The position numbers and the translations under genes were made by a program. Below the pieces are notes generated by a model. It was not told where the DNA came from. It worked only from the letters and a program-made list of their open reading frames with translations, and made no database searches. From positions 1 through 44,166 of the forward strand of contig JBDLJZ010000003.1 of the NCBI GenBank assembly GCA_039714095.1: a DNA stretch of 44,166 nucleotides, read 5' to 3'. The stretch comes from Nanobdellota archaeon. GTDB lineage: Archaea > Nanobdellota > Nanobdellia > Pacearchaeales > GW2011-AR1. Shown piece after piece: positions 12,903 to 31,353 of the stretch; position 1 is the stretch's first letter; each line of letters begins with the position of its first letter.

Positions 12903-13227
12903 AAGATATCTTTTAGTAGAAGGAAAAAATCTTAAACAAAATATTGAAAAAGCAATTTTAGAATTTATAGGAGTTTTAGGAATGTCACAAGTTGGATTAA
13001 GTTTTATAGAAACACACTCACGAGTGTATACCCACAAGGGGCACGAGAACCTGCAAGCAGGCCCCGAAAAATCTTCAAATAAGATTTCTACAAAGGGTAA
13101 AAATAATTCTACAATAATTTGCATAAACCGAGAAATGGTTGATTCTGTTCGTGCATCACTTTGTGTCTTCCCCGATAAAATAGAAGTAAAAAAAGTTAGT
13201 GGGACTTTGAAAAGTTTAAGAAAATAA
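12868..13227 (+). CDS. pop5: RNase P protein Pop5/Rpp14 with an in-frame insertion
   Basis: PSARENKRYL and VSGTLKSLR ends; located upstream of psmA as in the archaeal exosome superoperon. Confidence 0.8.
   Translation: MKPLKPSARENKRYLLVEGKNLKQNIEKAILEFIGVLGMSQVGLSFIETHSRVYTHKGHENLQAGPEKSSNKISTKGKNNSTIICINREMVDSVRASLCVFPDKIEVKKVSGTLKSLRK
13012..13097 (+). repeat. composite palindromic element inserted in frame in pop5
   Basis: Hairpins ACACTC-AC-GAGTGT, CCTGC-AA-GCAGG and AAATCTT-CAAAT-AAGATTT; the 3' part matches 29067-29100. Confidence 0.75.
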
Positions 13228-13246
13228 TTTTTTAATTTTTAATAGT

Positions 13247-14290
13247 TTATTCCAACTTTTCCAATTCGTTTAATAATTCTTCCACAAGATTTTCTTTCCC
13301 CACATTTCTAATTACTTTTCCATTCTTGAAAAGTATGCCTCCGTTTTCTCTTCCTGCGATTCCTATATCTGCCATTTTCGCTTCGTCTGCATTTACAAAG
13401 CAACCTAGAATTCCAACTTTTATTGGCTTATCGATTTTTGTTAATTTTTCTTCAACTTCTTTTGCAATTTTTATTACATCTATTTTTGCTCTTGCGCATG
13501 TAGGGCAAGAAATCAATATAGCCCCCTTTCTTAATTTAAGTGATTTTAAAATAGAATATCCTGCAAAAATTTCTTTTTTAGGGTCAGCACTTAATGAAAC
13601 TCTAATAGTATCCCCAATACCCTCTAATAACAATGCACCAATACCAATACTTGATTTAATTATTCCTCCTTTTTCTGTCCCTGATTCTGTAATTCCTAGG
13701 TGTAAAGGATAATTTGATTTTTCGGAAAATAATTTATTAGCTCCTATAGTCTCAAAAATATCTGAAGATTTTAAAGAAACAATAATATTATGAAAATTAA
13801 GATCTTCGCAAATTTTAATAGTTTCTAAAGCAGATTCAACTATGGCTTTAGGGCTTGAACCAAATTTTTCCATAATTTTTTTTGGCAAAGAACCTATATT
13901 AATTCCAATTCTTATTGGAATCTTTTTATTTTTTGCCTCTTTAATTATTATTTTTAATTTATCTTCTGAGATATTTCCTGGATTGATTCTTATCTTATCT
14001 ATACCCTGTTTTATACATTCTAATGCTAAAGCATAATCATAATGAATATCTGTAACAAGAGGGATATTTATTTGTTTTTTAATTTTATTTATTTGTTTTG
14101 CAGATTCAATATCTGGAACAGCGATTCTAATGATCTCACAACCTACTGACTCTAATTCAAGAATTTGTTTAACTGTAGAATCTACATCACTAGTTTTTGT
14201 ATTACACATTGATTGAACTCTTATAGGATTATTTCCTCCAATTTTGAGATTACCAATTTTTACTTCTTTTGTTTTTTTTCTTTGAATCAT
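13247..14290 (-). CDS. ispG: (E)-4-hydroxy-3-methylbut-2-enyl-diphosphate synthase
   Basis: IRVQSM, DIHY, RINPGN, LHLGITE, GDTIRVSL motifs; Fe-S ligands in CPTC and GCFVN. Confidence 0.95.
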   Translation of the reverse strand: MIQRKKTKEVKIGNLKIGGNNPIRVQSMCNTKTSDVDSTVKQILELESVGCEIIRIAVPDIESAKQINKIKKQINIPLVTDIHYDYALALECIKQGIDKIRINPGNISEDKLKIIIKEAKNKKIPIRIGINIGSLPKKIMEKFGSSPKAIVESALETIKICEDLNFHNIIVSLKSSDIFETIGANKLFSEKSNYPLHLGITESGTEKGGIIKSSIGIGALLLEGIGDTIRVSLSADPKKEIFAGYSILKSLKLRKGAILISCPTCARAKIDVIKIAKEVEEKLTKIDKPIKVGILGCFVNADEAKMADIGIAGRENGGILFKNGKVIRNVGKENLVEELLNELEKLE

Positions 14291-14349
14291 GTATCTAATT
14301 TAATATAAGTCTTTAAATTATTTATTCAGTTTCATCACCATTAAAAATC

Positions 14350-14388
14350 AAAAAGGTTTCAGGAACTTTGAAAAGTTTAAGAAAATAA
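14350..14388 (+). repeat. second copy of the pop5 3' end
   Basis: Encodes KKVSGTLKSLRK* like 13189-13227, with synonymous codon differences and a 24-bp exact core. Confidence 0.93.
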
Positions 14389-14424
14389 GTGAATATTTAA
14401 AAGGAGTGAGTCGTTTAGAGTTTT

Positions 14425-14922
14425 ATGAAAGAGGGAGCAGGAGAACTATTAAAAACAGTCGGCAAGACTAATGGAGTTTTTTATTGGTTATCTTTGGTGA
14501 TATCTACATTTCTGATTATAAATATTGTTTTTGATCCTTTTGAATTTTTAATAGCATTTGGAACGGGAATTTTTTCTTCAATAGCACTGATATTCTATTT
14601 ATTTATGCCTGATTCGTTTATTTTCCAAATAGATTCATTTTTATATATGATCTTTTTAAGTATAGCTTCGTACCCTTTCTTATTTTATTTTTTATATAAA
14701 AAAAGCAAGAAAAAAATTTATCCTATTCATTTCTTATGGTTCATAAATTTTGTTTTATTAGCAATAGCTACTATAACTTGGACTCTTTATGTAATTTATG
14801 GATGTGTATTTAAAGGTGAAGGTAGTATGGGATGTGTATTGCCGATTGTAACTATCCCCATAATTATCATTTCAAGTCTTGTCGCATACTTCTTTTATTA
14901 CAAATCTGAAGGACTTAAATAA
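14425..14922 (+). CDS. hypothetical multi-pass membrane protein
   Basis: 165-aa ORF with about 5 hydrophobic segments. Confidence 0.75.
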   Translation: MKEGAGELLKTVGKTNGVFYWLSLVISTFLIINIVFDPFEFLIAFGTGIFSSIALIFYLFMPDSFIFQIDSFLYMIFLSIASYPFLFYFLYKKSKKKIYPIHFLWFINFVLLAIATITWTLYVIYGCVFKGEGSMGCVLPIVTIPIIIISSLVAYFFYYKSEGLK

Positions 14923-14934
14923 ATCTGTGAAATG

Positions 14935-14965
14935 TTGAAAAGTTTAAGAAAATAATTTTTTAATT
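14935..14965 (+). repeat. third copy of the pop5 3' end plus downstream T-tract
   Basis: 31 bp identical to 13207-13237 (TTGAAAAGTTTAAGAAAATAATTTTTTAATT). Confidence 0.88.
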
Positions 14966-15441
14966 CTTGTAACAAAATCAATAAAAATTGTGAAATAGAT
15001 TAATAAAATAAACACTTTCATTATATTGTATTTAAATAAAACTTCAGAAATTATCTTTATATCTGGGAAAATAAAAAAATAAAATATTAATGCTAAAATT
15101 AACCACAAAAACGAACTATAAATTGAAACAAGTCCTTTATAATTATAACTCCAATTATAATCCCAAAGTTTTATACCATTTTTTAAGAAAATAATTCCAA
15201 TTACAAATTCAAGTAAAGTTATAGAAATCAAGAACAATAAAATTCTATAAAATAAATTTATATCTAAATATGAAATTAACAGAACAATAACAGCCCCAAA
15301 TCCATAAATTGGCAAATAAATTCCTTTTAAAAATCCTCTATTTGTAAATTGCTTATTAATAATTCCAGTTCTTATTGTTTCAAATATCCAACCAAAAAAA
15401 CTTCCAATAAGAAAAACCAAAATCATTTCTTGAATTATCAT
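14944..15441 (-). CDS. putative ABC transporter permease-like membrane protein (CmpB/DUF1113-like)
   Basis: FLIGSFFGWIFE, NRGFLKG.YLPIYGFG and LWDY motifs. Confidence 0.75.
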   Translation of the reverse strand: MIIQEMILVFLIGSFFGWIFETIRTGIINKQFTNRGFLKGIYLPIYGFGAVIVLLISYLDINLFYRILLFLISITLLEFVIGIIFLKNGIKLWDYNWSYNYKGLVSIYSSFLWLILALIFYFFIFPDIKIISEVLFKYNIMKVFILLIYFTIFIDFVTRIKKLFS

Positions 15442-15573
15442 GGATAGATATATAATTGGATGTTTTAATTACTTTTCATAACATCCCGAAAATTTTATAA
15501 ACACTTTTAACCGCATTTTTTCAGAGAAAAATAAAGAATTAAACATATTATAAAGCTTTTATAAAAATATAAA

Positions 15574-16296
15574 ATGGATATGCCAATAGACATACAGCAC
15601 CAACAGATGGGTTATGACAGAACTGCAACAATGTTCTCTCCAGAGGGACATTTGCTTCAAGTTGAATATGCAGAAAAAACAGTGAGATTAGGCCCACTAA
15701 GCATTGGAATGGTTTGCACAGACGGAGTTTTTATAATCGCTGATAAAAGAATAAAAGATAAATTAATCGTACAAAAATCTGCAATAAAAATCCACGAAGT
15801 TGATTCTCATATTATATCAAGTGTTGCAGGAATTGTTTCAGATTCAAGAGTTTTAATAGAAAAAGCACAAGTCTTAGCACAACAGCACAGATTAACTTAC
15901 GACTCCCCAGCACCAACAGAATCAATAACAAAAGATATAGCTGACATAAAACAATATTTTAGCCAATATGGAGGAGCACGCCCTTTTGGTGTTTCATTAA
16001 TGATAGCAGGAATAACAAATAAAAAACCCGAACTTTTCATAAGCGATGTTACAGGAAGCTATTTATCTTACCACGCAAACGCAATCGGAGAAAACGACGA
16101 AAAAGCAAAAGAACTTTTAAGGGAACACTATAAACAAACTTTAACAATAAAAGAAGGAATAAAACTTACATTAGATATTTTCAAAGAAATTAAAGGAGAC
16201 GATTTTCATATAAGTAAACTTGAACTTGCTTATATTAATAAGGAAGATGAAAAATTAAAAAGATTAGAAGGCAATAAAATAGAAGAATTAAAATGA
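15574..16296 (+). CDS. psmA: proteasome alpha subunit
   Basis: GYDRTATMFSPEGHLLQVEYA and RPFGVS motifs. Confidence 0.96.
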   Translation: MDMPIDIQHQQMGYDRTATMFSPEGHLLQVEYAEKTVRLGPLSIGMVCTDGVFIIADKRIKDKLIVQKSAIKIHEVDSHIISSVAGIVSDSRVLIEKAQVLAQQHRLTYDSPAPTESITKDIADIKQYFSQYGGARPFGVSLMIAGITNKKPELFISDVTGSYLSYHANAIGENDEKAKELLREHYKQTLTIKEGIKLTLDIFKEIKGDDFHISKLELAYINKEDEKLKRLEGNKIEELK

Positions 16297-16499
16297 CAAA
16301 ATCAATAAAAAAAGATTACATAGTGGTAGGGTTAGGATATGATGGAAACGAGGGAGTTTTAATTATGCAAAATCCAAATGAAAATCAATTACCTTCCTAT
16401 GGGGTTGGAGTTACGGCTCAAAGATTATATTCAAAAAAACCAAAAAATAGTGATATTCAAAAAGCAGTTGAAGAATTTTTTAGTGGGGGAAATTTATAA
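16293..16499 (+). CDS. hypothetical protein inserted in the superoperon
   Basis: 68 aa; ATGA overlap with the psmA stop. Confidence 0.65.
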   Translation: MTKSIKKDYIVVGLGYDGNEGVLIMQNPNENQLPSYGVGVTAQRLYSKKPKNSDIQKAVEEFFSGGNL

Positions 16500-16500
16500 A

Positions 16501-16800
16501 ATGACAAGAGATAAATTCACACTAATTACAACAAAAACAAAAGAAGGAGATATTAAGCATAGCTATGCTGGATATAGAAATGTCAACGCCTGCGAGAGTG
16601 AGCCTATAATGGAAAATTTTGGAAATGTCTATGACGGATTAGCAAGACAATATGAACATAAGCATACAGAATTATTATCGTCTTATAATGAAGGAAAAAT
16701 AATAACTAAATTTAAAGGTCCAAAAATTGGAGGAAATCTTTTGCAAAGATGCTTCGGAGCAATAGTTGCAGAAGTTCAGAGGATTCAAGACGGAGTATAA
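16501..16800 (+). CDS. hypothetical protein inserted in the superoperon
   Basis: Start reassigned to 16501 (TAAAATG junction); 99 aa. Confidence 0.65.
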   Translation: MTRDKFTLITTKTKEGDIKHSYAGYRNVNACESEPIMENFGNVYDGLARQYEHKHTELLSSYNEGKIITKFKGPKIGGNLLQRCFGAIVAEVQRIQDGV

Positions 16801-16801
16801 A

Positions 16802-17476
16802 ATGGCACAAACATTAGCACGATTAAAAAGAGCAGGAAAACATTTTGAAATTAAAGTTGATTTAGACGATGCTTTAAGGTTAAGAAAAGGAGAGTCTGAT
16901 TTTCTTGAAGTAGAAGGAGACATGATTTTTACTGACGCTAAAAAAGGAGAACGAGCTTCAACTCAAGATTTAGAGTTAGCATTTGACACAACAGATATAA
17001 ATGAAATTGCAAAAAAAATTGTAAAAAACGGCGAAGTTCAGACAACACAAGCTCATAGAGATTCAGAACAAGAGAAAAAATTCAAGCAAGTTGTAGATTT
17101 TTTGGCAACAAACGCAATTGATTCTAAAACAGGCAATCCACACACAGCCGAAAGAATTAAAAACGCTTTAGAACAATCTCATATAAACATAAAGAATATT
17201 CCAATAGAAAATCAAATTAAAGATATTCTTGACAAAATAAGTGCAGTTATTCCAATAAAACTTGATACTAAAAAAGTCAAAGTTACAATACCTGCGATTC
17301 ACACAGGAAAAGCATACGGAGTAATAACCCAATACAAAGAAAGCGAAAACTGGCTCCCTAACGGGGACATTGAAGTAATTGTCGCGGTTCCTTCGGGGAT
17401 CATAATTGACTTTTACGAAAAACTAAATAATATCACGCACGGAAGTGCGCTAACAGAAGAAATCAAAGAAGAATAA
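16802..17476 (+). CDS. ribosome maturation factor SBDS/Sdo1
   Basis: ARLKRAGKHFEI, IFTDAKKG and NPHTAERI motifs; start set at the coupled ATG 16802. Confidence 0.93.
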   Translation: MAQTLARLKRAGKHFEIKVDLDDALRLRKGESDFLEVEGDMIFTDAKKGERASTQDLELAFDTTDINEIAKKIVKNGEVQTTQAHRDSEQEKKFKQVVDFLATNAIDSKTGNPHTAERIKNALEQSHINIKNIPIENQIKDILDKISAVIPIKLDTKKVKVTIPAIHTGKAYGVITQYKESENWLPNGDIEVIVAVPSGIIIDFYEKLNNITHGSALTEEIKEE

Positions 17477-17477
17477 A

Positions 17478-17846
17478 ATGGAACAAGAGATAAAAACACA
17501 GTACTTAGAAAACAAAGAAGACTTAGGAGCACTTTTTGAAGATAAAGATTTTGTTAATGTTGCATTAAAAGATGGATATCAGGACCCAGCATTATTTTGT
17601 AAGTGGGAGACTGATATAGATGATTGGTATAATGGATTAACAATCTTAAGAAAAAATGGGGATAATTTTCATTCTTATTGGATTAGCAATAGATATCTTT
17701 CAATAAAAGATGGAGTTATTTCTGAAGATACAACTCCTCATGTTGGAGGCTTCCAATTATCAAGTAAGACAAGTTTTGATTATAACTCATTAAAAGATAT
17801 GTATACGAATGCAGAAAAATTAAACACTCTTGCTGAAGGAAATTAA
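17478..17846 (+). CDS. hypothetical protein between SBDS and rrp4
   Basis: 122-aa ORF tightly spaced on both sides. Confidence 0.75.
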   Translation: MEQEIKTQYLENKEDLGALFEDKDFVNVALKDGYQDPALFCKWETDIDDWYNGLTILRKNGDNFHSYWISNRYLSIKDGVISEDTTPHVGGFQLSSKTSFDYNSLKDMYTNAEKLNTLAEGN

Positions 17847-17848
17847 AA

Positions 17849-18514
17849 ATGACAGAAAGAAAAATAGTAATACCTGGTGAAGAAATCGCAAAAGGCGACG
17901 ACTTTTTACCTGGAGAAAACACAGAAAAACAAGGAGATTCAATAATTGCACTAAAATACGGATTAGCAGAAGAATCAAACAAACTAATGAGAATAATTCC
18001 TTTGTCAGGAGTTTATCATCCACGAAGAGGAAACTCTGTAATTGGAAAAGTTATAATGATAACTTTCAACGGATGGGTAATTGACATCGGCGCAGCAGAC
18101 AATGCATTTTTATCTTTAATGGAAGTCCCGAGATTTGTAAACAAAGACCAACTTGAAGAAGTATTACAAATCGGCGATATGGTAACAGCAAAAATCTGGG
18201 CAATAAACAAGCGAGGAATTGATTTAAGTATAAAACAAAGAGGATTAGGAAGAATAGATGAAGGAATAATAATGAAAATAAATCCAAATAAAGTTCCAAG
18301 AATAATTGGAAAAGAAGGAAGCATGATAAAAATGGTAAAAGACGAGACAGGATGTAACATCACAGTTGGACAAAACGGATTCATTTGGTTAAAAGGTGAC
18401 AAAATAGAAAATGAATTATTTGCAAAAAAAGCAATCCAATTCATAGAATCAAAATCATTTGTAAGCGGTTTGACAGAAGAAGTTCAAAAATGGTTTGAGG
18501 GGGAGAAAAAATAA
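17849..18514 (+). CDS. rrp4: exosome RNA-binding subunit Rrp4
   Basis: VIPGE start, S1 domain, KH motif PRIIGKEGSM, GQNG. Confidence 0.94.
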   Translation: MTERKIVIPGEEIAKGDDFLPGENTEKQGDSIIALKYGLAEESNKLMRIIPLSGVYHPRRGNSVIGKVIMITFNGWVIDIGAADNAFLSLMEVPRFVNKDQLEEVLQIGDMVTAKIWAINKRGIDLSIKQRGLGRIDEGIIMKINPNKVPRIIGKEGSMIKMVKDETGCNITVGQNGFIWLKGDKIENELFAKKAIQFIESKSFVSGLTEEVQKWFEGEKK

Positions 18515-18515
18515 A

Positions 18516-19226
18516 ATGGCAAAAGAATTCATAAGAGACGACGGAAGAAAGTTTGATGAAATTAGACCAATGAAAGCAAAAGTTGGAATTATTCCTAGTG
18601 CTGATGGTTCTGCTATGTTTCAATTCGGAGATACAATTGCTATTGCTTCAGTTCGTGGACCTAAAAAAATGCACCCACAACATTCTCAAAATCCTGAGAA
18701 AGGAACTTTAAGATGTAATTATAGTATGATGAGTTTTTCAGTAGAAGACAGAATTCGTCCAGGACCAAGCCGAAGAAGCACTGAAATTAGCAAAATCACA
18801 GAGTGGGCATTAGAACCAGTTTTAATGATTGATGATTATCCTAATCAAGTTATAGATGTACACATTCACATTATTCAAGCAAGTGCATCAACTCGTTGCG
18901 CAGGAATTAATGCAGCAGCAATGGCATTAGCACACGCAGGCATACCAATGAAAGATATAGTTTCAAGTATTGCAGTAGGAAAAATAGACAAACAATTAGT
19001 TGTTGATGTAAATAAATTTGAAGATTCTGTATTTGACGAAGGTGAAGGAGCAACAGATATGCCATTTACTTTCACAAGCAACGGAAAAATAACTCATTTA
19101 CAATTAGACGGAAAAATAACAAAAGAACAATTCAAAGAAGTAATGAATTTAGCACAAGAAGGAGCAAAAAAAGTTTACGAAGTTCAAAAACAAGCATTAA
19201 AAGATTCAATTGGAGGAGAAAAATAA
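18516..19226 (+). CDS. rrp41: exosome subunit Rrp41
   Basis: RNase PH fold motifs DGRKFDEIRP, ADGSA, GPSRR, TDMP. Confidence 0.94.
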   Translation: MAKEFIRDDGRKFDEIRPMKAKVGIIPSADGSAMFQFGDTIAIASVRGPKKMHPQHSQNPEKGTLRCNYSMMSFSVEDRIRPGPSRRSTEISKITEWALEPVLMIDDYPNQVIDVHIHIIQASASTRCAGINAAAMALAHAGIPMKDIVSSIAVGKIDKQLVVDVNKFEDSVFDEGEGATDMPFTFTSNGKITHLQLDGKITKEQFKEVMNLAQEGAKKVYEVQKQALKDSIGGEK

Positions 19227-19227
19227 G

Positions 19228-19401
19228 ATGAATAATAAATGTGAGTATTACGAAAGATGTAGAAGAGAAAATAAAGAATTAAAAAATAATCTTATTAGTG
19301 AGGAGATCTCTAAAAGATTAAAAAATCCAATATCTTATGAATGTCTTTTTAATCAAGAATATATTGCTGAATGCCCGGTAGTAGAGGAGATTAAAAAATA
19401 A
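19228..19401 (+). CDS. small 4-Cys hypothetical protein between rrp41 and rrp42
   Basis: 57 aa; GGAGGAG upstream; TAAGATG and TAAAATG junctions. Confidence 0.6.
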   Translation: MNNKCEYYERCRRENKELKNNLISEEISKRLKNPISYECLFNQEYIAECPVVEEIKK

Positions 19402-19402
19402 A

Positions 19403-20206
19403 ATGGAAACAATGACAACACCAAACATTACAGGAGAAAGAATAAAGAAATATTTAGCAGAAGGAAAAAGATTTGATTCAAGAACTCCTTTTCAATTTAG
19501 AGATATTATAATTGAACAAAAAGTTTCAAAAAACGCAGAAGGTTCTGTTAGAGTTAAACTAGGAAAAACAGAAGTTTTAGTTGGTGTTAAAATGGGGGTG
19601 TCAACACCTTATGCAGACTCTCCAGATAAAGGAACAATGATGGTAACTTCTGAATTACTTCCTTTAAGTTCTCCGAGATTTGAATACGGCCCACCAAGAT
19701 TCCCTGCAATTGAACTCGCAAGATTAGTTGATAGAGCAATCAGAGAAAGCAAGTTTATACAATTTGATAAATTATGTATTAAAGAGGGAGAAAAAGTTTG
19801 GACTGTTTTTATAGATATTTATACAATTAACGACGATGGAAATTTACAAGATGCTGCGTCAATTGGAGCATTAGCTGCTTTGAAAAATGCAAAAATGCCT
19901 AAGTACGATGAGGAGGAAGAAAAAGTTCTTTACGGAGAATGGACAGAAGATTCCCTTCCAGTTGCTAAAGAATTACCAATATCAATGACATTCCATAGAA
20001 TAGGAAATAATTTTATAATTGACCCAACACGACAAGAAGAAGATGTTTCAGAAGTTAGATTAACTGTTGGAAGCACAGCAGGAATGATTTCATCAATGCA
20101 AAAAGGAAATTTAAAAACTTTGAGCATGGAAGATTTAAATATTATCTTAGATAATGTAGAAAGTGTAAGAAAAACTATTGCTAGCGCAATTGAGAAAATA
20201 AAATGA
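19403..20206 (+). CDS. rrp42: exosome subunit Rrp42
   Basis: AEGSVRVKLGKT, ELARLVDRAIRES, DDGN and DPT motifs. Confidence 0.94.
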   Translation: METMTTPNITGERIKKYLAEGKRFDSRTPFQFRDIIIEQKVSKNAEGSVRVKLGKTEVLVGVKMGVSTPYADSPDKGTMMVTSELLPLSSPRFEYGPPRFPAIELARLVDRAIRESKFIQFDKLCIKEGEKVWTVFIDIYTINDDGNLQDAASIGALAALKNAKMPKYDEEEEKVLYGEWTEDSLPVAKELPISMTFHRIGNNFIIDPTRQEEDVSEVRLTVGSTAGMISSMQKGNLKTLSMEDLNIILDNVESVRKTIASAIEKIK

Positions 20207-20580
20207 ATTCACAAGATTTCACAAGATACGAAAGAGCAAGAATTCTTGGAGCAAGAGCTTTGCAAATCGCAATGAACGCACCTTTGTTAATAAAAATTAG
20301 TCAAGACGATTTAGAAAAAATAAAATTTGATGCATTAAAAATAGCAGAAACAGAACTTAACTCAAATGTTTTACCAATTTCAATAAAAAAACCTTTTCCT
20401 CAAAGAAAAAAAGAAAAACTAAAAAGAATTAAGGAACAAGTTGTTAGTGACGAAAAAATTAAAGAAATTGAAGCTAAAGAAGAAGAAGAAATAGCAAAAA
20501 GCGGAGAAATAATGCAACTTGCAAATCCAGAAGAAGAAAGCGAATCAGAAGAGTCAAGTGCAAGTAACGATATTGAATAA
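20203..20580 (+). CDS. rpoK: RNA polymerase subunit K (Rpo6) with an acidic tail
   Basis: FTRYERARILGARALQIAMNAP. Confidence 0.94.
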   Translation: MNSQDFTRYERARILGARALQIAMNAPLLIKISQDDLEKIKFDALKIAETELNSNVLPISIKKPFPQRKKEKLKRIKEQVVSDEKIKEIEAKEEEEIAKSGEIMQLANPEEESESEESSASNDIE

Positions 20581-20731
20581 TTCTAAATCCAAATCTTAAT
20601 AAAATCTTGAACTTTCTTTAATTTATTGCAGATTTTTAATTAAAAATCTTTATACTCGCAATTATTGAAATGCTCGCCCTTTGGGATTATTTTTGCAAAA
20701 TCCTTAAATAGTTTATTTACAAAATTAATTT

Positions 20732-21928
20732 ATGATAATAAAGAGTGTGTCAGCCAAATCTATTTTAGATTCTCGCAAAGAAAAAACAATATTTATTTCA
20801 ATTAAAACAAACCTTGGAAAATTTTCTGCAAGTGCACCAAATGGAAAATCCACTGGAAAATTCTCAACAAAAATTTACAAAAAGTCTTTAGAACAAGACA
20901 TTGAAACAATTAAAAAATTCAGTGAATATTTTTCAAATGAAATCTTAGAAAAGTTTGAAGATTTACGAAGAATTGAAGATATTCTTGACAATCATGTTGG
21001 AGCTAATACACTTTTTGCTTTAGAATCAGCAACATTAAAAGCAATTGCAAAAGAACAAAAAAAAGAAATATGGGAGATTATTTATTCTTCACATGACTTC
21101 TCTGCTAAAGCAAAGAATCCTAAAAAACTTCCACGTTTAGTTGGTAATTGTATTGGGGGTGGAAAACATGCAGAAACTATTGATGGAAAAAAACCAGACT
21201 TCCAAGAATTTTTATTAATCCCAGATTCACACTCAGTTATTCAAGCCTTAAATACAAATAAATTTATAAAAATAAAATCTGGACAAAATTTAAAAACATT
21301 TGACAGCAAATTCAAAAATACAAAAAGTGATGAAGATGCATGGATGACATCTCTTGACGATAAATCTGTTTTAGAAGTCTTAAAAAATTCAATAAAACCA
21401 AAAACTAATTTAGGTTTAGATATTGCGTCCTCAAGTTTTTACAGACGAAAAAAATATCATTATAAAAATCCAAAACTTGACAGAACACCAGAAGAACAAT
21501 TCAACTATCTTTCTAATCTAATAAAAAATTTTAATTTATTTTATCTTGAAGATCCTTTTGAAGAAAATAATTTTGAAAATTTTACAAAACTCTTGAAAAA
21601 ATTTCCAGATAAATTAATTGTTGGAGATGATTTAACAGTTACAAATTATAAACGATTAGAAAAAGCAATAAACGAAAAAAGCATAAACACAATAATTGTA
21701 AAACCAAACCAAAACGGTTCATTAATTGAAGTCAAGCGTGTTTGCGAATTAGCAAAAAAACACAATATAAAAATTGTTTTTTCTCATAGAAGTGGAGAGA
21801 CAAAAGAAAATATTTTAGCAGATTTAGCATTTGGATTTCAAGCAGATTTCTTTAAATGTGGAATAACTGGAGATGAAAGAGAATCAAAGTTAAATAGATT
21901 AATTGAGATTGAGAAAGGTTTGAAATGA
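20732..21928 (+). CDS. eno: enolase (divergent)
   Basis: ILDSR, QEF, EDP, VGDDL, KPNQ and SHRSGET motifs. Confidence 0.9.
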   Translation: MIIKSVSAKSILDSRKEKTIFISIKTNLGKFSASAPNGKSTGKFSTKIYKKSLEQDIETIKKFSEYFSNEILEKFEDLRRIEDILDNHVGANTLFALESATLKAIAKEQKKEIWEIIYSSHDFSAKAKNPKKLPRLVGNCIGGGKHAETIDGKKPDFQEFLLIPDSHSVIQALNTNKFIKIKSGQNLKTFDSKFKNTKSDEDAWMTSLDDKSVLEVLKNSIKPKTNLGLDIASSSFYRRKKYHYKNPKLDRTPEEQFNYLSNLIKNFNLFYLEDPFEENNFENFTKLLKKFPDKLIVGDDLTVTNYKRLEKAINEKSINTIIVKPNQNGSLIEVKRVCELAKKHNIKIVFSHRSGETKENILADLAFGFQADFFKCGITGDERESKLNRLIEIEKGLK

Positions 21929-22025
21929 TTTTTAAGAGTATAGCCCCACCTAAACCTTATAAGAATATATTTTCAACAAATTCATTTGGAGAAAAGATTA
22001 AAAATGCTTTTTTCCTAATTTAGTT

Positions 22026-24602
22026 ATGAAAAAAAGTGTTGTGTTTGGTATTTTTTTTATCTTCATTTGTTTTAGCTTTATATCTGCTTTTTCATTTGAT
22101 GATTTATTTGGAAAGATTACTGGGAAAGCTATAGGAGGTGCTACTGAAATTCGTAGCTGGAATGATTTGCAAAATATGAAAAATGATTTAGACGGGGATT
22201 ATGTTTTAATGAATAATTTAGACGAAAATTCTTTTGGTTATCAAAATTATAATAGTGGACTTGGATTTGAACCTATTGGTTTTGGGAATTGTAATGGTGC
22301 CGATAATTTTAAAGGAAGTTTTGACGGCAAAGATTATACTATCAAGGGACTTTATATCAATAGACCAACAAATTCAGATGTAGGTTTATTTGGCTGTATA
22401 TGGACTAATACAACTATAAAAAATTTCAATCTTGAGGAAATTAGAATAATTGGAAATAATTATGTGGGAGGAGTTGTAGGAAATACTTATGGGATAAATA
22501 ATAGTCTCTTGGATATTTCTGTTTCTGGAAATGTTTCTGGAAATGATTCTATTGGAGGGGCTGTGGGATATTTAGCTGAAGGGAATCTTGCATATAGGAT
22601 TTCTGCTAATGGGAATGTACTGGGAGAAGAGAATGTCGGAGGGCTTGTAGGACATTTGTCAGGATTTCTTATTGAGTCTATTTATAGTGGCAATGTAGAC
22701 GGAAATCAGAAGATAGGAGGATTAGTAGGTTATAGTAATGGGGATGTTAGTCTTTCTTCTGTAAAAGGTATTGTATCTGGTAGTAGTAGGGTGGGGGGAT
22801 TAGTTGGTGTATCTGCTTCTGATATTTCTTATTCTAATTTTAATGGGCAAATAAATGGAGGTGATGAAATAGGTGGACTAATTGGATACTCTTTTGTTGG
22901 TAGTAAAATTACCAATTCCTATTCAAGAGGAGAGATTAATGGAAGTGGAAATTATGTTGGTGGACTAATTGGATTTAGTTTTTCTAATTTATCAGATTCA
23001 TATCATGTAGGAGGTGTAGGCGGAAGTAATTATGTTGGTGGATTAATTGGACAGAATCAAGGAGATAAGGTTATCAATTCTTACTCAAATGGAAAAGTTA
23101 ATGGGAGCGGAAATTATGTTGGAGGTCTTGTTGGAATTAATAAAGGAATTATTGATAGATCATATTTTTCTGGAAATGTTTATGGAAATAATTATGTAGG
23201 TGGATTGATTGGGGAAAATAATGAAAGGTTAACTTTAGTATCTGCACAAGGAGATTTTGAAGGCAATAATTATGTTGGAGGGTTAATAGGTAATAATACT
23301 AATAGAGTTTTTTATTCATATGTCATAGGGGATGTAAATGGGTTAAATGATGTCGGAGGGCTGATAGGGAATAATATTGGGAGTATAAATAATTCTTATG
23401 CAGAAATAAATATTATAGGCACTAATAATATTGGAGGACTTGTAGGTTACAATAGAGGAATTATAAAAGATGTGTTTGTGAGTGGTCGTGCAAATGGGGT
23501 TGCAAATATCGGAGGACTTGTAGGGGAGAATAATGCAGATATAAGTAATGTTTATTCAAATGTTTATACAAATGGAACTACAAAAATTGGAGGACTCATA
23601 GGAAAGAATAATGCAGGAGCGATTAAAGATGTGTTTGCTATTGGAAACGTAAAAGGAACAAATTTTATAGGGGGATTGATTGGTTCTTTTGTCGGAGGTT
23701 CTGTTAATAATCTTTATTTATATTGGGATACTTCTTTTGGAGATTTAGATTACTGTTTGAAGATTAATAATGAGATTGATATTAATTGTACTGTCCGACC
23801 CAATGATTTAAATTATTTTAAGGGAAATGTTTCTTTAAGAGAGCCTATGATAAATTGGGATTTTATTAATATTTGGAAAGAAGTGGATACAAACTATCCT
23901 GTATTAAAATTTTATACTACTTTACCTGCTGGAAGTGTAATTACCTCTCCCTATCCAACTTCTACTTGCAGTTCTTCTGATTTAAGTGCATGCAATGATG
24001 AGAGCTCTTGTCAAGATAATAGTGGATTTTGGTATGGAAATGACTGTTATTCAGAGAGTCAGAGAGATGAAGGAGATGAAGATGAAGAATACGAAGAATT
24101 AGATTATACTAGTGCTAGGTTTTGGGAGTTAACTGAAAGAAGAGACACAAGGGAGTTTTATGTGGGTGAAAAAATTAATATGAAATTAGATGAAAGACAA
24201 AGAGTGAGGATTAAGTTTGATAATGATGTGCATTACGTAGGAGTTGTTGAGCTTAGTGGAAGGTGGGCAGTAATAAGTGTTGCAAGTGATCCTCAAAAAG
24301 TTCAATTTTTTCTTGGAGATGAAAAAATGTTTGACGTTGATGGGGATGGAATTGGAGATTTATCTATTGAATTAGAGTCAATTAGGAGTGATTATGCAAG
24401 TGTGATTGTTAAAAGAGTTTCTAAGAGAATGCCTATAAGAGATGTTGGCGGAGACACTGAAGAAGCTGATTTAGGATATGCTGATGTTCCAAGCGAGTAT
24501 GGTGTAAAAGATTTCGTAATATTTATATTGGGTTCATTAATTGTTCTTATGATACTTTATGCAATAATGGGAAAAAAGAAGATTCAAAAGTTAGAGTGGT
24601 GA
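22026..24602 (+). CDS. GLUG-repeat surface protein with a C-terminal TM helix
   Basis: Signal peptide, FKGSFDGKDYTI, many VGGLVG/IGGLIG repeats. Confidence 0.88.
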   Translation: MKKSVVFGIFFIFICFSFISAFSFDDLFGKITGKAIGGATEIRSWNDLQNMKNDLDGDYVLMNNLDENSFGYQNYNSGLGFEPIGFGNCNGADNFKGSFDGKDYTIKGLYINRPTNSDVGLFGCIWTNTTIKNFNLEEIRIIGNNYVGGVVGNTYGINNSLLDISVSGNVSGNDSIGGAVGYLAEGNLAYRISANGNVLGEENVGGLVGHLSGFLIESIYSGNVDGNQKIGGLVGYSNGDVSLSSVKGIVSGSSRVGGLVGVSASDISYSNFNGQINGGDEIGGLIGYSFVGSKITNSYSRGEINGSGNYVGGLIGFSFSNLSDSYHVGGVGGSNYVGGLIGQNQGDKVINSYSNGKVNGSGNYVGGLVGINKGIIDRSYFSGNVYGNNYVGGLIGENNERLTLVSAQGDFEGNNYVGGLIGNNTNRVFYSYVIGDVNGLNDVGGLIGNNIGSINNSYAEINIIGTNNIGGLVGYNRGIIKDVFVSGRANGVANIGGLVGENNADISNVYSNVYTNGTTKIGGLIGKNNAGAIKDVFAIGNVKGTNFIGGLIGSFVGGSVNNLYLYWDTSFGDLDYCLKINNEIDINCTVRPNDLNYFKGNVSLREPMINWDFINIWKEVDTNYPVLKFYTTLPAGSVITSPYPTSTCSSSDLSACNDESSCQDNSGFWYGNDCYSESQRDEGDEDEEYEELDYTSARFWELTERRDTREFYVGEKINMKLDERQRVRIKFDNDVHYVGVVELSGRWAVISVASDPQKVQFFLGDEKMFDVDGDGIGDLSIELESIRSDYASVIVKRVSKRMPIRDVGGDTEEADLGYADVPSEYGVKDFVIFILGSLIVLMILYAIMGKKKIQKLEW

Positions 24603-24775
24603 GAACAATTTGGTTGGTATAAAGTTCATATCTATTTTTATTATTCCTCTAATTAGATGGCTAATAAAATCTTTAAAATAATTCTAATACCGATACTTTG
24701 GAGGCACTCAGTTTAAAGTAGTTGTGTTGAGAAATTGATAACAAAATTTATAAGTTTCAATAATTTGATAAACTT

Positions 24776-24979
24776 ATGGAAGCACAAATTAATCTTCAAG
24801 AAATAATGGAAAAATTAGTTCAACTTCAAGAAGATGTTAATTTTATTAAATGCAATATGGTTAATCCTGATTGTATTCTTGATGAGGATGACCTTGAAGC
24901 GTTAAAATTAGCTAGAGAGGAGTATAAGAATGGAGAGACAATATCTCATGAAGAATTAATAAAAGAACTTGGACTATGA
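24776..24979 (+). CDS. putative antitoxin
   Basis: Small acidic protein ending GETISHEELIKELGL; ATGA overlap with the RelE-like gene. Confidence 0.75.
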   Translation: MEAQINLQEIMEKLVQLQEDVNFIKCNMVNPDCILDEDDLEALKLAREEYKNGETISHEELIKELGL

Positions 24980-25233
24980 AATTTGAATTAGATTATTCAA
25001 AAAGTTCAAAGAAATTTCTTAGGAAATCTGAAAAAGAATTATTGTTAAGGATTTTTAATAAATTGGAAAAACTAAAAGAAAATCCTGTTCCTTCTGATGC
25101 TAAAAGAATTGAAGGTTCTAAAGAACTAACTTTTAGAATAAGAATTGGAAAATATAGAATTCTTTATGAAGTTAATAATAACAAGAAAGTTGTTCTTGTT
25201 TCAAAGATTGATAATCGTGAAAAAGTTTATTAA
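24976..25233 (+). CDS. RelE/ParE-family toxin
   Basis: Basic 85-aa protein with FRIRIGKYRILY and R.KVY motifs. Confidence 0.88.
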   Translation: MKFELDYSKSSKKFLRKSEKELLLRIFNKLEKLKENPVPSDAKRIEGSKELTFRIRIGKYRILYEVNNNKKVVLVSKIDNREKVY

Positions 25234-25242
25234 AATAATTAA

Positions 25243-26829
25243 TCACTTCTTATATCTAATCGCAGCCTCAATTAGTCCCTTGAATAATGGGGCAGGATTT
25301 AATAAACTACTTTTTAATTCAGGGTGTGCTTGTGTTCCCACAAAATAAGGATGGTTTTTGAGTTCTATGAATTCTACAAGGCTGTTGTCCGGAGACATCC
25401 CTGAAAAAACCAAACCATTTTGCTGTAGCAATTCATGATAATCTTGGTTTACTTCATATCTATGTCTATGACGTTCAGAAACTTCTGTTGAATTGTAAAG
25501 TGTGTGAATTTTTGTGTCTTCTTTAATTTTTGCAAGACAAGAACCCAATCTCATTGTTCCGCCTTTGCCACTAATATTTTTTTGACTTTCTAATATATGA
25601 ATTACAGGATGTTCAGTGTTAGAATTTACTTCAGTAGTATTAGAATCTTTTAATCCACAAACATTTCTCGCAAAATCAATTACTGCCATTTGCAAACCAT
25701 AACAAATTCCAAGAAACGGAACTTTATTTTCCCTACAATATTCTACTACTTTTATTTTCCCTTCTGTTCCTCTTGAACCAAATCCTCCTGGAACTATAAC
25801 TCCTGACACACAATTTAAATCTATTTTATTTTCATTACTTGTATCAATCCACTTTAAATTTATTTTTACTGAAAAATGCGAGGCACAATGATTAAGTGCT
25901 TCAATTATACTTGCATAAGAGTCTTCAAGAAGAGTATATTTCCCTGCAATAGCAATTGTTATGTGCTCTTTAGGATTTTCTCTTTTCCTTATAAGTTCTG
26001 CCCAAGTATCTAAATTAGATTTTATAGGAATATTTAATTTTCTTGCTAATAATTGGGAAATTCCTTGTTCTTCAAATACCAATGGAATTTTTGAAACATC
26101 ATCCACATCAATACCAGTGATTACTTTTTCAGGGTCAAGCCCACTTGATTTTGCAATTTTGTTTCTAACATTTTTATTTAACATTTCACTACATCTTGCA
26201 ATAATAATATCTGGTTCAATGCCTCTTTGCCTAAGAAGACTAATGCTTTGTTGCGTGGGCTTTGATTTTTGCTCATCAACCCCATAAGGAATAGGAACAT
26301 AAGTTAAATGAATATACACGACATTTTCTTTCCCCACAGTCTGCGATAAATTTTTTACAGCATCAATATATAATTCGTTTTCCATATCTCCAACTGTTCC
26401 ACCTATTTCTATTAATACAATTTCAGTTTTACTTTCTTCACCAATTTTTATGAAATGATTTTTTATAAAATTTGAAACATGGGGAATCATTTGAACTGTC
26501 TGCCCTAAATAATCTCCTCTTCGTTCTTTGATTCTTATTTCTCTAAACACTTTTCCCATTGTAAGATTCCATTCAGATTTACAATTTACTCCGATAAATC
26601 TTTCATAATGTCCAAAATCCATATCAACTTCTCCACCGTCGTCAAGAACAAAGACTTCTCCGTGTTCTGTGGGGTTCATTGTTCCAGGGTCAACATTGAG
26701 ATATCCGTCACATTTGATTGGAATGACTTTATAATTTTTTGATAAAATTGTCCCGATACTTGCAAGAGCTATTCCTTTTCCAAGACCAGAAAGCACACCT
26801 CCTGTTATCACCACGTATTTTCTTTGCAT
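25243..26829 (-). CDS. pyrG: CTP synthase
   Basis: TGGVLSGLGKG, GICYGLQ, RHRHRYE and QAHPE motifs. Confidence 0.97.
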   Translation of the reverse strand: MQRKYVVITGGVLSGLGKGIALASIGTILSKNYKVIPIKCDGYLNVDPGTMNPTEHGEVFVLDDGGEVDMDFGHYERFIGVNCKSEWNLTMGKVFREIRIKERRGDYLGQTVQMIPHVSNFIKNHFIKIGEESKTEIVLIEIGGTVGDMENELYIDAVKNLSQTVGKENVVYIHLTYVPIPYGVDEQKSKPTQQSISLLRQRGIEPDIIIARCSEMLNKNVRNKIAKSSGLDPEKVITGIDVDDVSKIPLVFEEQGISQLLARKLNIPIKSNLDTWAELIRKRENPKEHITIAIAGKYTLLEDSYASIIEALNHCASHFSVKINLKWIDTSNENKIDLNCVSGVIVPGGFGSRGTEGKIKVVEYCRENKVPFLGICYGLQMAVIDFARNVCGLKDSNTTEVNSNTEHPVIHILESQKNISGKGGTMRLGSCLAKIKEDTKIHTLYNSTEVSERHRHRYEVNQDYHELLQQNGLVFSGMSPDNSLVEFIELKNHPYFVGTQAHPELKSSLLNPAPLFKGLIEAAIRYKK

Positions 26830-26940
26830 ATTTAATTTTTGATTGTTGAACTTTTAAAAATTGCTGTTGTCCAATAATATATTTAATTAATTAAAATAAT
26901 CCACAAAAAGTTTTATAAACCATTTCTTCTCCAATTTCTT

Positions 26941-27807
26941 ATGACTAATAAAGAAAATAATACAAAAGAAAAAATAGAAATTAAAGAAGATATTCAAGAA
27001 GAATTTACTGAAGAATTAGAAAAAAAAGAAAATTCTAAAGAAGATAATGATTTAAAAAAAGCTGCTGAAAAAGAATCTTTAGCAACAGAAGAACCAAAAA
27101 AAGAATTATCTTTAGAAGAAAAAAAGAAAGCTCTTTTAGAAAAAGTAAAAAAACTAAAATCAAAAGTTGATGTTACTGAAACTTCTGAAGAATTAAAAGA
27201 GCAAGTTAAAATTAAGAAAAGGGATGATATGCTTATACCTTTAGATGAATATGTTAAAGCAGGAATTTATCTTGGAACAAAAGTCGTAACCCCTGACATG
27301 AAACCTTTTATTTACAGAAGAAGAGCAGACGGATTGGCAATTTTTAATACAGATTTAATTGACGAAAAAATCAAAGAAGCAATTGAATACTTGAATAAAT
27401 TTAATGCAGAAGACGTGGTTCTTGTTTGCAAAAGACAAGCAGGTTGGAAGGGAGCATTGATGTTTTCAGAATTAACAGGCATTAGAGTTTTCACAAAAAA
27501 ATATCCTGCAGGAATTTTAACAAACACAAATCTTGAAGATTTCTTTGAAAACGAACTAACAATTGTAACAGATTCATGGTTAGACAAAAACGCATTAAAC
27601 GATACACTAAATGTAAAGAAAAAAGTCTTGATGATTTGCGACACAAACAACTTTTCAAAAGGAGCAGACAAAGTGATAATTGGGAACAATAAGCATCACA
27701 AATCTTTAGGTGTAATATTTTATCTTTTAACAAGAGGATTTTGTAAAGTAAAAAAGATTGATGCGAAGATACCTGAGTTGGACTGGTGGGTAGAAGAGTC
27801 TAATTGA
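26941..27807 (+). CDS. rps2: 30S ribosomal protein S2 with a charged N-terminal extension
   Basis: YVKAGIYLGTK, MKPFIYRRRADGL, GILTN, CDTNN and GNNK motifs. Confidence 0.92.
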   Translation: MTNKENNTKEKIEIKEDIQEEFTEELEKKENSKEDNDLKKAAEKESLATEEPKKELSLEEKKKALLEKVKKLKSKVDVTETSEELKEQVKIKKRDDMLIPLDEYVKAGIYLGTKVVTPDMKPFIYRRRADGLAIFNTDLIDEKIKEAIEYLNKFNAEDVVLVCKRQAGWKGALMFSELTGIRVFTKKYPAGILTNTNLEDFFENELTIVTDSWLDKNALNDTLNVKKKVLMICDTNNFSKGADKVIIGNNKHHKSLGVIFYLLTRGFCKVKKIDAKIPELDWWVEESN

Positions 27808-27975
27808 TTTTGTTTCTTTTTGATTTATACTTCGTTATTTCCTTCCTCACATAGACAACTATGCTACTGAAGAAAAGTGCCTCGTCTAAACGCAAAAATA
27901 ATTCAAAATTTGGGAAAGAGTAAGAGAAAGAATAATTACAATAAGTTTTTATATAATAAATAATTTAAATTTTTA

Positions 27976-28368
27976 ATGGAAAAGCAGTATAAAAGTTTAG
28001 GTGAGTTGGTTAAAAAATCTGGAGTTATTGGAGCTGTGAGATACAAATTTCTTGAAATGAGAGATCGAAGTAAAGTTTTTAATCATATTTGCATGAATCC
28101 TTCACCCCAGCCTTTAATGACAACGGCGTATAATGGAAACTATGTTGCAGCTTGGGATGATATGGGAATACTTGTTTATTTTAATCCAAATCCAAATTAT
28201 CCCGAGGATGCTTATGGTTCAATTAAGTTAGGAAAAGATGGAACTTATTCTCTTGTAAAATTGACTGAAAAAGAGATTAATAAAAAAATTCCAATAAATT
28301 TTGCCAATAAAATTCATGCAATTGGTGGGACAGATCATTCTCGAACTAAAACTAATCAATCTTCATAA
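27976..28368 (+). CDS. hypothetical protein
   Basis: 130-aa ORF with a TATA-like TTTATATA upstream. Confidence 0.65.
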   Translation: MEKQYKSLGELVKKSGVIGAVRYKFLEMRDRSKVFNHICMNPSPQPLMTTAYNGNYVAAWDDMGILVYFNPNPNYPEDAYGSIKLGKDGTYSLVKLTEKEINKKIPINFANKIHAIGGTDHSRTKTNQSS

Positions 28369-28774
28369 ACAGCCAATTCTTTTTCTCACCACCAAGTTTA
28401 GCATTAACTAAAACATATTTCCCTTTCAATTTTTTTCCAAAAATTTCAAATTCAATTTTTTTGCCCTTAGTAAAAATATCTTTTTGGATATTTTTCTGGG
28501 TACGCCCTTGGGTGCTTAATTCATCATCAATCAGTTCATAAGTCCCTTTGTCCCAAATTTTTACTGTTCCTTTTCCATAACCCTCTTTAATTTCTCCTTC
28601 AAATTTCGCGTAACTAATTGGATGGTCCTCTACTTGAATAGCAAGTCGTTTAATCTTTTTTACCTTTGGTGGAACTTTTGGCAAAGCCCAACTTTTTAAA
28701 ACACCGTTCATCTCAAGACGTAAATCCCAATGCAAATGAGAAGCATTGTGCTCTTGAATTACATATTTTGGCAT
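28352..28774 (-). CDS. stand-alone LigD 3'-phosphoesterase domain with an in-frame insertion
   Basis: YVIQEH, HWDLRLE, VLKSWALPK, VEDHP, YGKGTVKIWDKG motifs. Confidence 0.9.
   Translation of the reverse strand: MPKYVIQEHNASHLHWDLRLEMNGVLKSWALPKVPPKVKKIKRLAIQVEDHPISYAKFEGEIKEGYGKGTVKIWDKGTYELIDDELSTQGRTQKNIQKDIFTKGKKIEFEIFGKKLKGKYVLVNAKLGGEKKNWLFMKID
28463..28515 (-). repeat. palindromic element inserted in frame in the LigD phosphoesterase gene
   Basis: GCACCCAAGGGCGTACCCAGAAAAATATCCAAAAAGATATTTTTACTAAGGGC aligns end to end with 29052-29101. Confidence 0.85.
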
Positions 28775-28927
28775 AAATAATTAAGTAAATTAAAATTTAT
28801 AAAATCTCCGTCGCCAAACTATAATTTTTCTAACCAAACATTTATATACCTAATTTTTCTGGATTAATTATTAACTAAGATGAGTGCCTTATTTAAATCA
28901 TGTTTAACCTTGAATTAAGGTATGATG

Positions 28928-28967
28928 CAGTAGCAGTCATAGTTGTAGTTCTAAAAAAATTATAATA
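28928..28967 (+). other. 5' arm of the 16S processing stem (pairs with ~30566-30604)
   Basis: CAGTAGCAGTCATAGTTGTAGTTC...ATTATAATA is imperfectly complementary to TATTATAAT..GAATTACAGTTATGCTGCTTTACTG. Confidence 0.7.
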
Positions 28968-29051
28968 CAGCCAATAGTTAGGATTTGTGTGAAGTGATTT
29001 GTTTTCTTATAGACAAATTGCGCAATAAAGAATTTTATTTTAATAATTTTC

Positions 29052-29101
29052 GCACCAAATGGTGTACCCTGAAAAATCTTGAAAAGATTTTTACTAAGGG
29101 C
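29052..29101 (+). repeat. palindromic element in the 16S leader
   Basis: GCACCAAATGGTGTACCCTGAAAAATCTTGAAAAGATTTTTACTAAGGGC; two hairpins. Confidence 0.85.
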
Positions 29102-29111
29102 AATATTGTTA

Positions 29112-30558: not shown

Positions 30559-30649
30559 ATATTATATTATTATAATCTTGAATTACAGTTATGCTGCTTT
30601 ACTGCTACAGAAAAAATTTAAAAACCGACGAGGGTTAGAAATAATCATT

Positions 30650-30720
30650 GGGCCCATAGTCTAATGGTAGAATACTTCCCTTGCACGGAAGAGACCCGTG
30701 TTCGATTCACGGTGGGTCCA
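30650..30720 (+). tRNA. tRNA-Ala(TGC)
   Basis: Acceptor stem GGGCCCA/TGGGTCC with G3-U70, anticodon arm CTTCC-CTTGCAC-GGAAG, T-loop TTCGATT; lies in the 16S-23S spacer. Confidence 0.95.
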
Positions 30721-30784
30721 TATAATTTTTTCTGTAAAACTTAGTTAATAACATTCAAACAAAATAAAATGGAAACAATAGAAG

Positions 30785-31332: not shown

Positions 31333-31353
31333 AATAAGCAGGAGAAGAAATTT
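31333..31353 (+). other. 5' arm of the 23S processing stem (pairs with ~34229-34249)
   Basis: AGCAGGAGAAGAAAT is the exact reverse complement of ATTTCTTCTCCTGCT. Confidence 0.8.

Follow-up and report, generated by a model that had tools for sequence, protein, structure and literature searches.

A 44,166-nt contig of a Nanobdellota archaeon (JBDLJZ010000003.1 in assembly GCA_039714095.1; this whole stretch, contig C3 of the source genome G000, is hereafter called the window) carries three copies of a short structured repeat, one in the leader of the 16S rRNA gene and two in frame within protein-coding genes, and these copies belong to what is very probably a family of very short, non-autonomous insertion elements that resemble the Rickettsia palindromic elements (RPEs). 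The element family is real and recently active, and such an RPE-like element is apparently undescribed in Archaea so far, in that searches of largely open-access literature yielded no report of one in DPANN or other Archaea. A preliminary description of the window had proposed a structured mini-element, analogous to the RPEs and inserted in frame, on the basis of two copies (here A and B) and a third, composite copy in a Pop5-like gene. All three are present where they were placed (Table 1); copies A and B align end to end, and the differences between their hairpins are compensatory (CTT/AAG vs. ATC/GAT, and A-T vs. C-G). The tests named in that description (genome-wide copies, insert length, empty orthologs, surface loops) support the proposal, as detailed below.

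The source genome assembly comprises 756,630 bp in 59 contigs, has a G+C content of 28.9%, and is 89.6% complete. A regular expression for the two conserved boxes of the element returned 45 candidates in this genome, an nhmmer profile returned ∼65 hits below E 0.01, and a covariance model (CM), built from 22 copies aligned with MAFFT and counted at E ≤ 0.01, returned 58 hits, so that the search for further copies finds dozens. The basic unit is 51–57 nt long, and composite forms are 84–93 nt long. In the 5′ part of the unit is a 4–5-bp hairpin (CACCC..GGGTG plus covarying variants), followed by a conserved linker, GTACCCYGA, a second, A/T-rich hairpin of 8–10 bp, the sequence of which varies among copies while its pairing is kept, and a conserved 3′ tail, TTTACTRRGGGC, usually with an A after it. 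The full consensus reads RCACCCAAGGGYGTACCCYGAAAnAT, stem-loop, ATnTTTACTRRGGGC, then usually AAA. Pairing of the long helix across the 22 aligned copies is 95.9%, and 7 of its 10 pairs have changes on both sides; none of 500 shuffles matches the observed covariation or pairing, and pairing drops to 35%–61% when the partners are slid by 1–3 columns. The Y after CCC and the R before GGG show no covariation in the nhmmer copies inspected. A reading of the 2 × 5 internal loop as a K-turn was tried and rejected, the commonest tail being ACTAA rather than ..GA and the opposite strand YG (by inspection).

Longer forms of the element contain additional hairpin modules of 30–42 nt nested at GTA^CCC, or have a complete second unit nested in the hairpin-2 loop. 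Comparison of shared sites places a 42-nt module between GTA and CCC in the copy within the glutamyl-tRNA synthetase (GluRS) gene; the copies at C8:1221 and C2:21800 have 30-nt modules at the same junction; and the copy on C36 holds a whole 48-nt element within its hairpin-2 loop. The loci that show nesting include C20:9083. In the composite copy in the Pop5-like gene of the window, additional small hairpin modules precede the common hairpin-2/tail module on its 5′ side. Composite forms recur at several loci, and they arise by nesting. As a separate observation, three tandem copies, one of them partial, lie in a divergent intergenic region at C38:2030–2285 in G000, upstream of a + strand open reading frame (ORF), and the congener G001 is ∼244 nt shorter there.

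Evidence for mobility comes from a comparison of G000 with the whole genome of this congener (951 kb in 98 contigs). Both flanks were found on one G001 contig for 37 of the 58 G000 copies, and 29 of these sites could be aligned across the insertion point at a flank identity of about 85%: G001 is empty at 23 of them and occupied at 6 (one recognized by eye only, as a nested difference). A single-split search added 2 further clean empty sites, and the comparison in the other direction, from G001 to G000, gave 5 G001 copies with convincingly empty G000 sites and 7 shared sites, one of them additional to those above. The preliminary description had asked whether coding inserts are multiples of three; all 13 clean coding gaps in the single-split search are, with sizes of 51 nt (four gaps), 84 nt (five gaps), and 48, 54, 90, and 93 nt (one gap each). 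The surplus is 54 nt in the isoleucyl-tRNA synthetase (IleRS) gene, 51 nt at C25, C2:43366, and C8:4151, and 84 nt in the Pop5-like gene (an exact net surplus over G001), at the N terminus of Cbf5, and at C30, C27, and C2:32438. Flank mismatches number at most 10/48 in 12 of these 13 gaps and 12/48 at C2:32438. The non-coding gaps include ones of 89 and 48 nt, and the gap in the 16S leader measures 51 nt.

When the junctions are set against the empty alleles, no target-site duplication is found, only 1–3 nt of ambiguity; at one non-coding site, on C32, ATGAAAA is repeated. The empty alleles read purine^A, mostly ahead of an A run, and this is the sole regularity among left flanks that are otherwise dissimilar (ttgg, gga, cgg, att, aaa, tcg). 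Terminal inverted repeats are absent as well: the ends are CAC(C).. and ..GGGC(A), which are reverse complementary only in the CCC/GGG core. More distant genomes show which way the change went. Among the aligned relatives, G000 alone has the IleRS insert, with a gap at the site in the 9w01_B alignment, and at the insertion site in the gene for the DNA ligase D 3′-phosphoesterase domain (LigD-PE), 11 of 14 orthologs have a tight turn where G000, G001, and the relative G006 have 18–24 extra residues, the G006 copy being a decayed relic because its second hairpin is lost. Since the outgroups lack the IleRS and LigD-PE inserts, the change is insertion, not loss. These empty sites, in G001 and in the outgroups, are of the sort that the preliminary description proposed to look for, and together with the 84-nt surplus in the Pop5-like gene they bear out its claim that the coding copies add peptides without breaking the frame.

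Three further observations concern sites of this kind. In G001, a 7-nt tandem repeat (CAGAAAT-like) occupies C93 ∼6641–6705, opposite the element at C29:4342–4412 in G000; conversely, a CAGAAAT-like 7-nt tandem repeat lies at C34 ∼4256–4344 in G000, opposite the element at C90:587–641 in G001. Both sites are coding, and the 7-nt unit is present several times; such repeats may represent another type of filler within genes or hypervariable linkers. The IleRS of the relative G035 (L057, G035:C42) has an unrelated A/G/N-rich insert of ∼23 residues, a few residues downstream of the G000 element site.

Within genes, the copies are compatible with translation through the insert. None of the 25 internal coding copies, defined as lying at least 35 codons from either ORF end, has a stop in the host frame, for which P is about 2e-6 given a mean of 1.88 open sense frames out of three, and coding inserts add 16–31 residues. 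The 3′ box is read as ..F/S-T-K/E-G-K in 37 of the 44 copies located in ORFs of at least 100 codons, and two copies in the third 3′ frame carry a TACAAGGGG variant that avoids TAA. Hairpin length sets the frame of the 5′ box, and all three frames are used.

The LigD-PE insert illustrates what such a copy does to its host protein. Copy B encodes about residues 86–104 (LSTQGRTQKNIQKDIFTKG). An AlphaFold model computed from a 14-sequence alignment has a mean predicted local distance difference test (pLDDT) score of 85.7, with values <50 exactly at residues 86–103, between strands 69–84 and 106–113. Of the two Protein Data Bank homologs, 5dmp and 3p43, the latter has a tight turn at the position of the insert and essentially no loop between the flanking segments. 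The insert, the only one modeled, is predicted to form a disordered loop between two β strands, which agrees with the surface-loop placement suggested in the preliminary description; in view of the low-pLDDT loop and the lack of a loop in 3p43, we take the peptide to be passenger material. The shared copies read QGRTQKNIQKDIF in G000 and RRVYPDKSSKKIS in G001 and are of equal total length: an indel of +1 in hairpin 1 is offset by one of −1 in hairpin 2, which replaces the central part of the peptide completely but preserves its length, the frame, and both hairpins. What is conserved is the nucleotide sequence and its pairing, not the peptide. This bears on the idea that the family is coding in nature, a repeated peptide motif or small domain conserved in many proteins rather than a nucleic-acid element. 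The single frame in which most copies read the 3′ part is what such a repeat would show, but the use of all three frames for the 5′ part and the presence of copies in the 16S leader and between genes refute it, and orthologous copies encode different peptides and the one modeled peptide is predicted to be disordered. We give the coding-repeat idea practically no weight.

The orientation of the copies is strongly biased. In G000, 44 of the 58 copies lie in the sense direction within ORFs of at least 100 codons, 2 are antisense only (one of them a degenerate copy within the gene for the α subunit of phenylalanyl-tRNA synthetase, PheRS-alpha, net 48 nt), and 12 are neither; in G001, the corresponding numbers are 13, 0, and 12 of 25. 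Over both genomes, sense copies outnumber antisense copies 57 to 2. Each of the 14 non-coding or boundary copies shares its strand with the closest ORF in the mechanical calls. Within contigs C3 and C8, adjacent copies change strand along with their genes, so orientation follows transcription and not replication. With 1.4 of three antisense frames open, the strand bias cannot be put down to stop codons alone, and selection on the peptides alone gives no explanation of why the copies are oriented with transcription.

A bias of this kind, non-coding copies included, is expected if the inserts are mini-introns or are otherwise excised at the RNA level (e.g., by a splicing endonuclease plus RtcB), since only sense copies would be removable and the proteins would never carry the peptides. 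Excision would also sit well with an RNA structure that is conserved while the peptide is not and with the RtcB encoded in the genome. DPANN archaea have broad-specificity splicing endonucleases, and in Crenarchaeota an intron is spliced from the cbf5 pre-mRNA. However, neither freedom from stops in 25 of 25 internal copies nor gap sizes that are multiples of three in 13 of 13 cases would be needed if the inserts were always removed. Nor is there a consistent bulge-helix-bulge (BHB) motif in the 58 copies, the commonest placement being shared by 7 of them and a BHB-like match being present in 40 of the 58 real copies vs. 28 of 58 shuffled controls, and the flanking exons are unrelated and so cannot supply a conserved outer helix. 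We consider excision at the RNA level very unlikely.

Because selection on the peptides leaves the sense orientation unexplained, we favor, for the mobile-element reading, a form of mobility tied to transcription. Insertion is precise, leaves no detectable target duplication, and usually falls between a purine and an A, and the copies are nearly always on the transcribed-sense strand. Copies persist where the harm is small: those seen within genes are stop-free multiples of three, and lengths are free in leaders and intergenic regions. Movement may be as a single-stranded nucleic acid recognized via the hairpins and conserved linkers, in a process that would be coupled to transcription either through the exposed non-template strand or through an RNA intermediate, and the mobilizing enzyme would act in trans. 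In its strongest form, this proposal has the element spreading on the displaced non-template strand or as a reinserted RNA copy without any recognizable transposase, reverse transcriptase, or HUH enzyme in these reduced genomes, as a new hairpin-guided class whose perfect stems are renewed in each round or by template switching within the hairpin; we offer this form as speculation, with the odds clearly against it.

Copies related to the G000 family were sought in other genomes. There is no CM hit in 34 of 40 close relatives; hits are found in G001 (24–25), G006 (3), and G011 (2), the last from a genus other than that of G000, and three genomes have a single marginal hit (E 0.003–0.007). Of 150 other genomes sampled evenly across the order, 5 have 1–5 hits, all in the same family. 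An exact 22-mer scan with one genome per species found 31 loci, of which 30 are full CM matches; these 30 full copies are spread over ∼20 metagenome-assembled genomes (MAGs) titled Woesearchaeota, Pacearchaeota, or Nanoarchaeota, and most are open in the sense frame. A 22-mer match in a MAG titled “Acidoferrales bacterium” is not matched by the CM and is regarded as chance. In viral contigs, the 22-mer has no match, and the one match to a two-box pattern lacks CM support and is likewise put down to chance.

The copy in the 16S leader shows how the same position can be filled in one lineage and vacant in another. The 3′ end of copy A is 10 nt upstream of the mature 5′ end of 16S rRNA. The site is empty in G001 and occupied at the same position in G011 (G011:C25:4489–4562), with near-identical flanks, an enlarged hairpin 1, and a hairpin 2 of different sequence that is nevertheless paired; the seven other 16S leaders inspected have no element. 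We take the leader copy to occupy a non-coding site, flanked by the upstream leader and the mature 5′ end, where an insert is tolerated, and it would presumably be trimmed away with the precursor RNA. A predicted leader-trailer duplex for the 16S processing stem was not used as evidence, the prediction being unreliable in this AT-rich sequence.

Occupancy of one leader site in two genera would also be expected of a functional cis-acting RNA motif, with a role in protein binding, processing, stability, or localization, that has been recruited into transcripts, including pre-rRNA, and selected site by site. The orientation of the copies is that of the transcript, and the single-stranded linkers are strongly conserved and the stems maintained, as such a motif would require. 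Yet 23 of the 29 aligned sites are empty in a congener whose flank identity is ∼85%, the motif is absent from 34 of 40 relatives and has decayed to a relic in G006, and the host genes share no theme beyond housekeeping. Nor does it match a known RNA family: at gathering score, the Rfam matches in the window are rRNAs and tRNA only, with none for the element, and there is no match even at E ≤ 1 within 28440–29111. We therefore rate a selected cis-acting motif as slightly less probable still than RNA-level excision.

Returning to the reading as an RPE-like mobile element, several results weigh against it. As the preliminary description had anticipated in leaving the mobilizer open, a linked HUH/Y1 gene was sought and none was found in the G000 assembly, and in G000 as assembled (89.6% complete) no candidate mobilizer was found. 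No Y1/IS200 TnpA (PF01797) was detected in G000, G001, or G011, assemblies that are 71%–90% complete, while Y1 transposases are present in 11 of 41 related genomes, and across the 41 genomes there is no correlation of Y1 genes with the element. The TnpB zinc-ribbon has a best score of 18.7 bits in G000, below the cut-off, and OrfB_IS605 has no match; no reverse transcriptase is found in G000; and the Y2 search gave no match in G000, with a control that was equally silent. No parent insertion sequence (IS) with matching ends was found. The only DDE transposase detected, DDE_Tnp_1 at C32:3202–3675, lacks matching ends, and its homologs, confined to the element-free relatives G021, G022, G024, and G040, are missing from G001, G006, and G011; because of these two results it is rejected as a partner on present evidence. 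An orthologous pair of copies in G000 and G001 shows no greater similarity than a non-orthologous pair, so that re-invasion of hot spots or conversion among copies fits the shared sites as well as simple inheritance does, and the similarity pattern suggests one of the former. The 5′ hairpin is 64.8% paired in the mixed 22-copy alignment, a low score that comes from the misalignment of three sequence variants and from a recurrent A.C mismatch; variants that do pair (such as CACTC/GAGTG and CACTCG/CGAGTG) are visible. Finally, ORF calls are mechanical and G000 is split over 59 contigs, and that the inserts are translated we infer from the preservation of frame. For positions 20000–29100 of the window, the sequencing runs listed are two DNA metagenome runs of one study, one of them probably the source, and no RNA run.

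Near the rejected transposase gene, four GYGTAC sites lie within ∼110 nt (C32:2527–2640), just upstream of the ORF at C32:2671–3762 that contains DDE_Tnp_1. GYGTAC is rare in G000, with 107 sites seen vs. ∼288 expected from composition, and 46 of the 107 are within elements, where the core is GGGYGTACCC.

The genes that host copies in G000 are varied. They include translation genes (IleRS, another class I aminoacyl-tRNA synthetase with two copies, GluRS, and L32e), genes for replication and topology (PolD DP2, DnaG, and topoisomerase IA, TopA), and RNA-related genes (Cbf5 with two copies, RtcB, TYW3, a wyosine enzyme, FtsJ, and a ThiI-like gene), and further hosts encode a P-type ATPase (CopA), an Elp3-like radical-SAM protein, an Obg-like GTPase, an arginase-family protein, and a PD-(D/E)XK nuclease. 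Some copies stand right after the host ATG (ATGACACCAC...), among them those at C9:23663–23716, C2:32438–32491, C2:21800–21853, and C36:337–389 in G000 and L023 in G011, and some hairpin variants themselves make an in-frame ATG (..AAAATGTTTACTAAGGGC); N-terminal copies may extend or re-define the protein start.

The positions of the three window copies and of the genes around them are collected in Table 1. The name Pop5/Rpp14 is tentative because the protein scores 20.5 bits against PF01900, for which the cut-off is 23; it has no Pfam match at 1e-5. The LigD-PE gene is close to the 16S rRNA gene on the same contig in G001, G002, G003, G006, G009, G011, G015, G016, G021, and G024 as well, and this proximity is a conserved divergent neighborhood in the family. 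A 108-codon ATG ORF lies at 30785–31111(+) of the window, between the tRNA-Ala and 23S rRNA genes.

Table 1. Element copies, host genes, and rRNA features in the window
Feature	Position	Strand	Support or remark
Element copy A, 16S rRNA leader	29052..29101	+	CM 29050-29104, E 8.8e-14
Element copy B, in frame in LigD 3′-phosphoesterase gene	28463..28515	-	CM E 3.8e-15
Composite (long) copy, in frame in Pop5-like gene	13012..13098	+	CM 13047-13101, E 2.3e-8
Host gene LigD_N (DNA ligase D 3′-phosphoesterase domain), 140 aa	28352..28774	-	Pfam PF13298, E 6.1e-37
Host gene, probable RNase P protein Pop5/Rpp14, 119 aa	12868..13227	+	Pfam PF01900, E 5.1e-4
rRNA operon	29112-34224		tRNA-Ala in spacer
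16S rRNA gene, downstream of copy A	29112..30558	+	Rfam RF01959, 1297.5 bits

About 1 gene in 15 of this ultra-small archaeal genome carries a foreign loop of 17–31 residues, and the notion of selfish DNA inside protein genes is thereby extended from Rickettsia to Archaea, with an element of only about 52 nt. The inserts inflate the apparent divergence of DPANN marker proteins and can mislead alignments, domain searches, and structure prediction, as in the case of the Pop5-like protein, which does not reach its Pfam cut-off. Between congeners, they mark genome change of very recent date, and they amount to an experiment of nature on where the surfaces of conserved proteins accept insertions. 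An unusual integration route is indicated by the sense orientation, the nesting of modules, and the absence of target duplications, and the element is a possible minimal substrate for tests of it.

Among known systems, archaeal BHB introns and the translational-bypass inserts (byps) of Magnusiomyces mitochondria are also short, structured, sense-strand inserts in essential genes. The present element differs from both in being frame-preserving and stop-free and in lacking a conserved BHB, and nothing about it demands splicing or bypassing. The IS200/IS605-derived palindrome-associated transposable elements (PATEs) and the REP (repetitive extragenic palindromic) sequences with their REP-associated tyrosine transposases (RAYTs) have subterminal hairpins, no terminal inverted repeats or target duplication, seamless presence or absence, and strand specificity. 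Like PATEs, the element has subterminal hairpins, lacks terminal inverted repeats and target-site duplications, and is strand-specific; unlike them, it goes with no Y1 transposase found in G000, G001, or G011 and has no conserved 4–5-nt target 5′ of the insertion. Its two hairpins are dissimilar and its orientation tracks transcription rather than replication, which sets it apart from PATE and REP sequences alike. From REP sequences and bacterial interspersed mosaic elements with RAYTs (REP families are described in PMC3733652), it further differs in that 44 of its 58 copies are intragenic and no Y1 domain is found in G000.

[quoted passage not shown] Classical MITEs differ from it in having terminal inverted repeats and target-site duplications and a parent IS, none of which was found here. 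Archaeal MITEs are given for Sulfolobus, Halobacterium, Haloquadratum, Desulfurococcus, and a few others, and the RPEs, of about 150 bp, are presented as the extreme case of in-frame MITE insertion (PMC10969869, available portion). Compared with the RPEs by description, the archaeal element is three times shorter (51–57 nt, or 84–93 nt when composite, vs. ∼150 bp; PMC10969869, in part). It also differs from them in consisting of two unequal hairpins with conserved single-stranded linkers, in being read in different frames in different copies, in occurring frequently in leaders and untranslated regions with an orientation that follows transcription, and in forming nested composites. What it has in common with the RPEs, as far as the same part of PMC10969869 describes them, is the dispersal of palindromic repeats, in frame, through unrelated housekeeping genes of a reduced genome, the addition of peptides that the host fold tolerates, and insertion sites that differ among related species.

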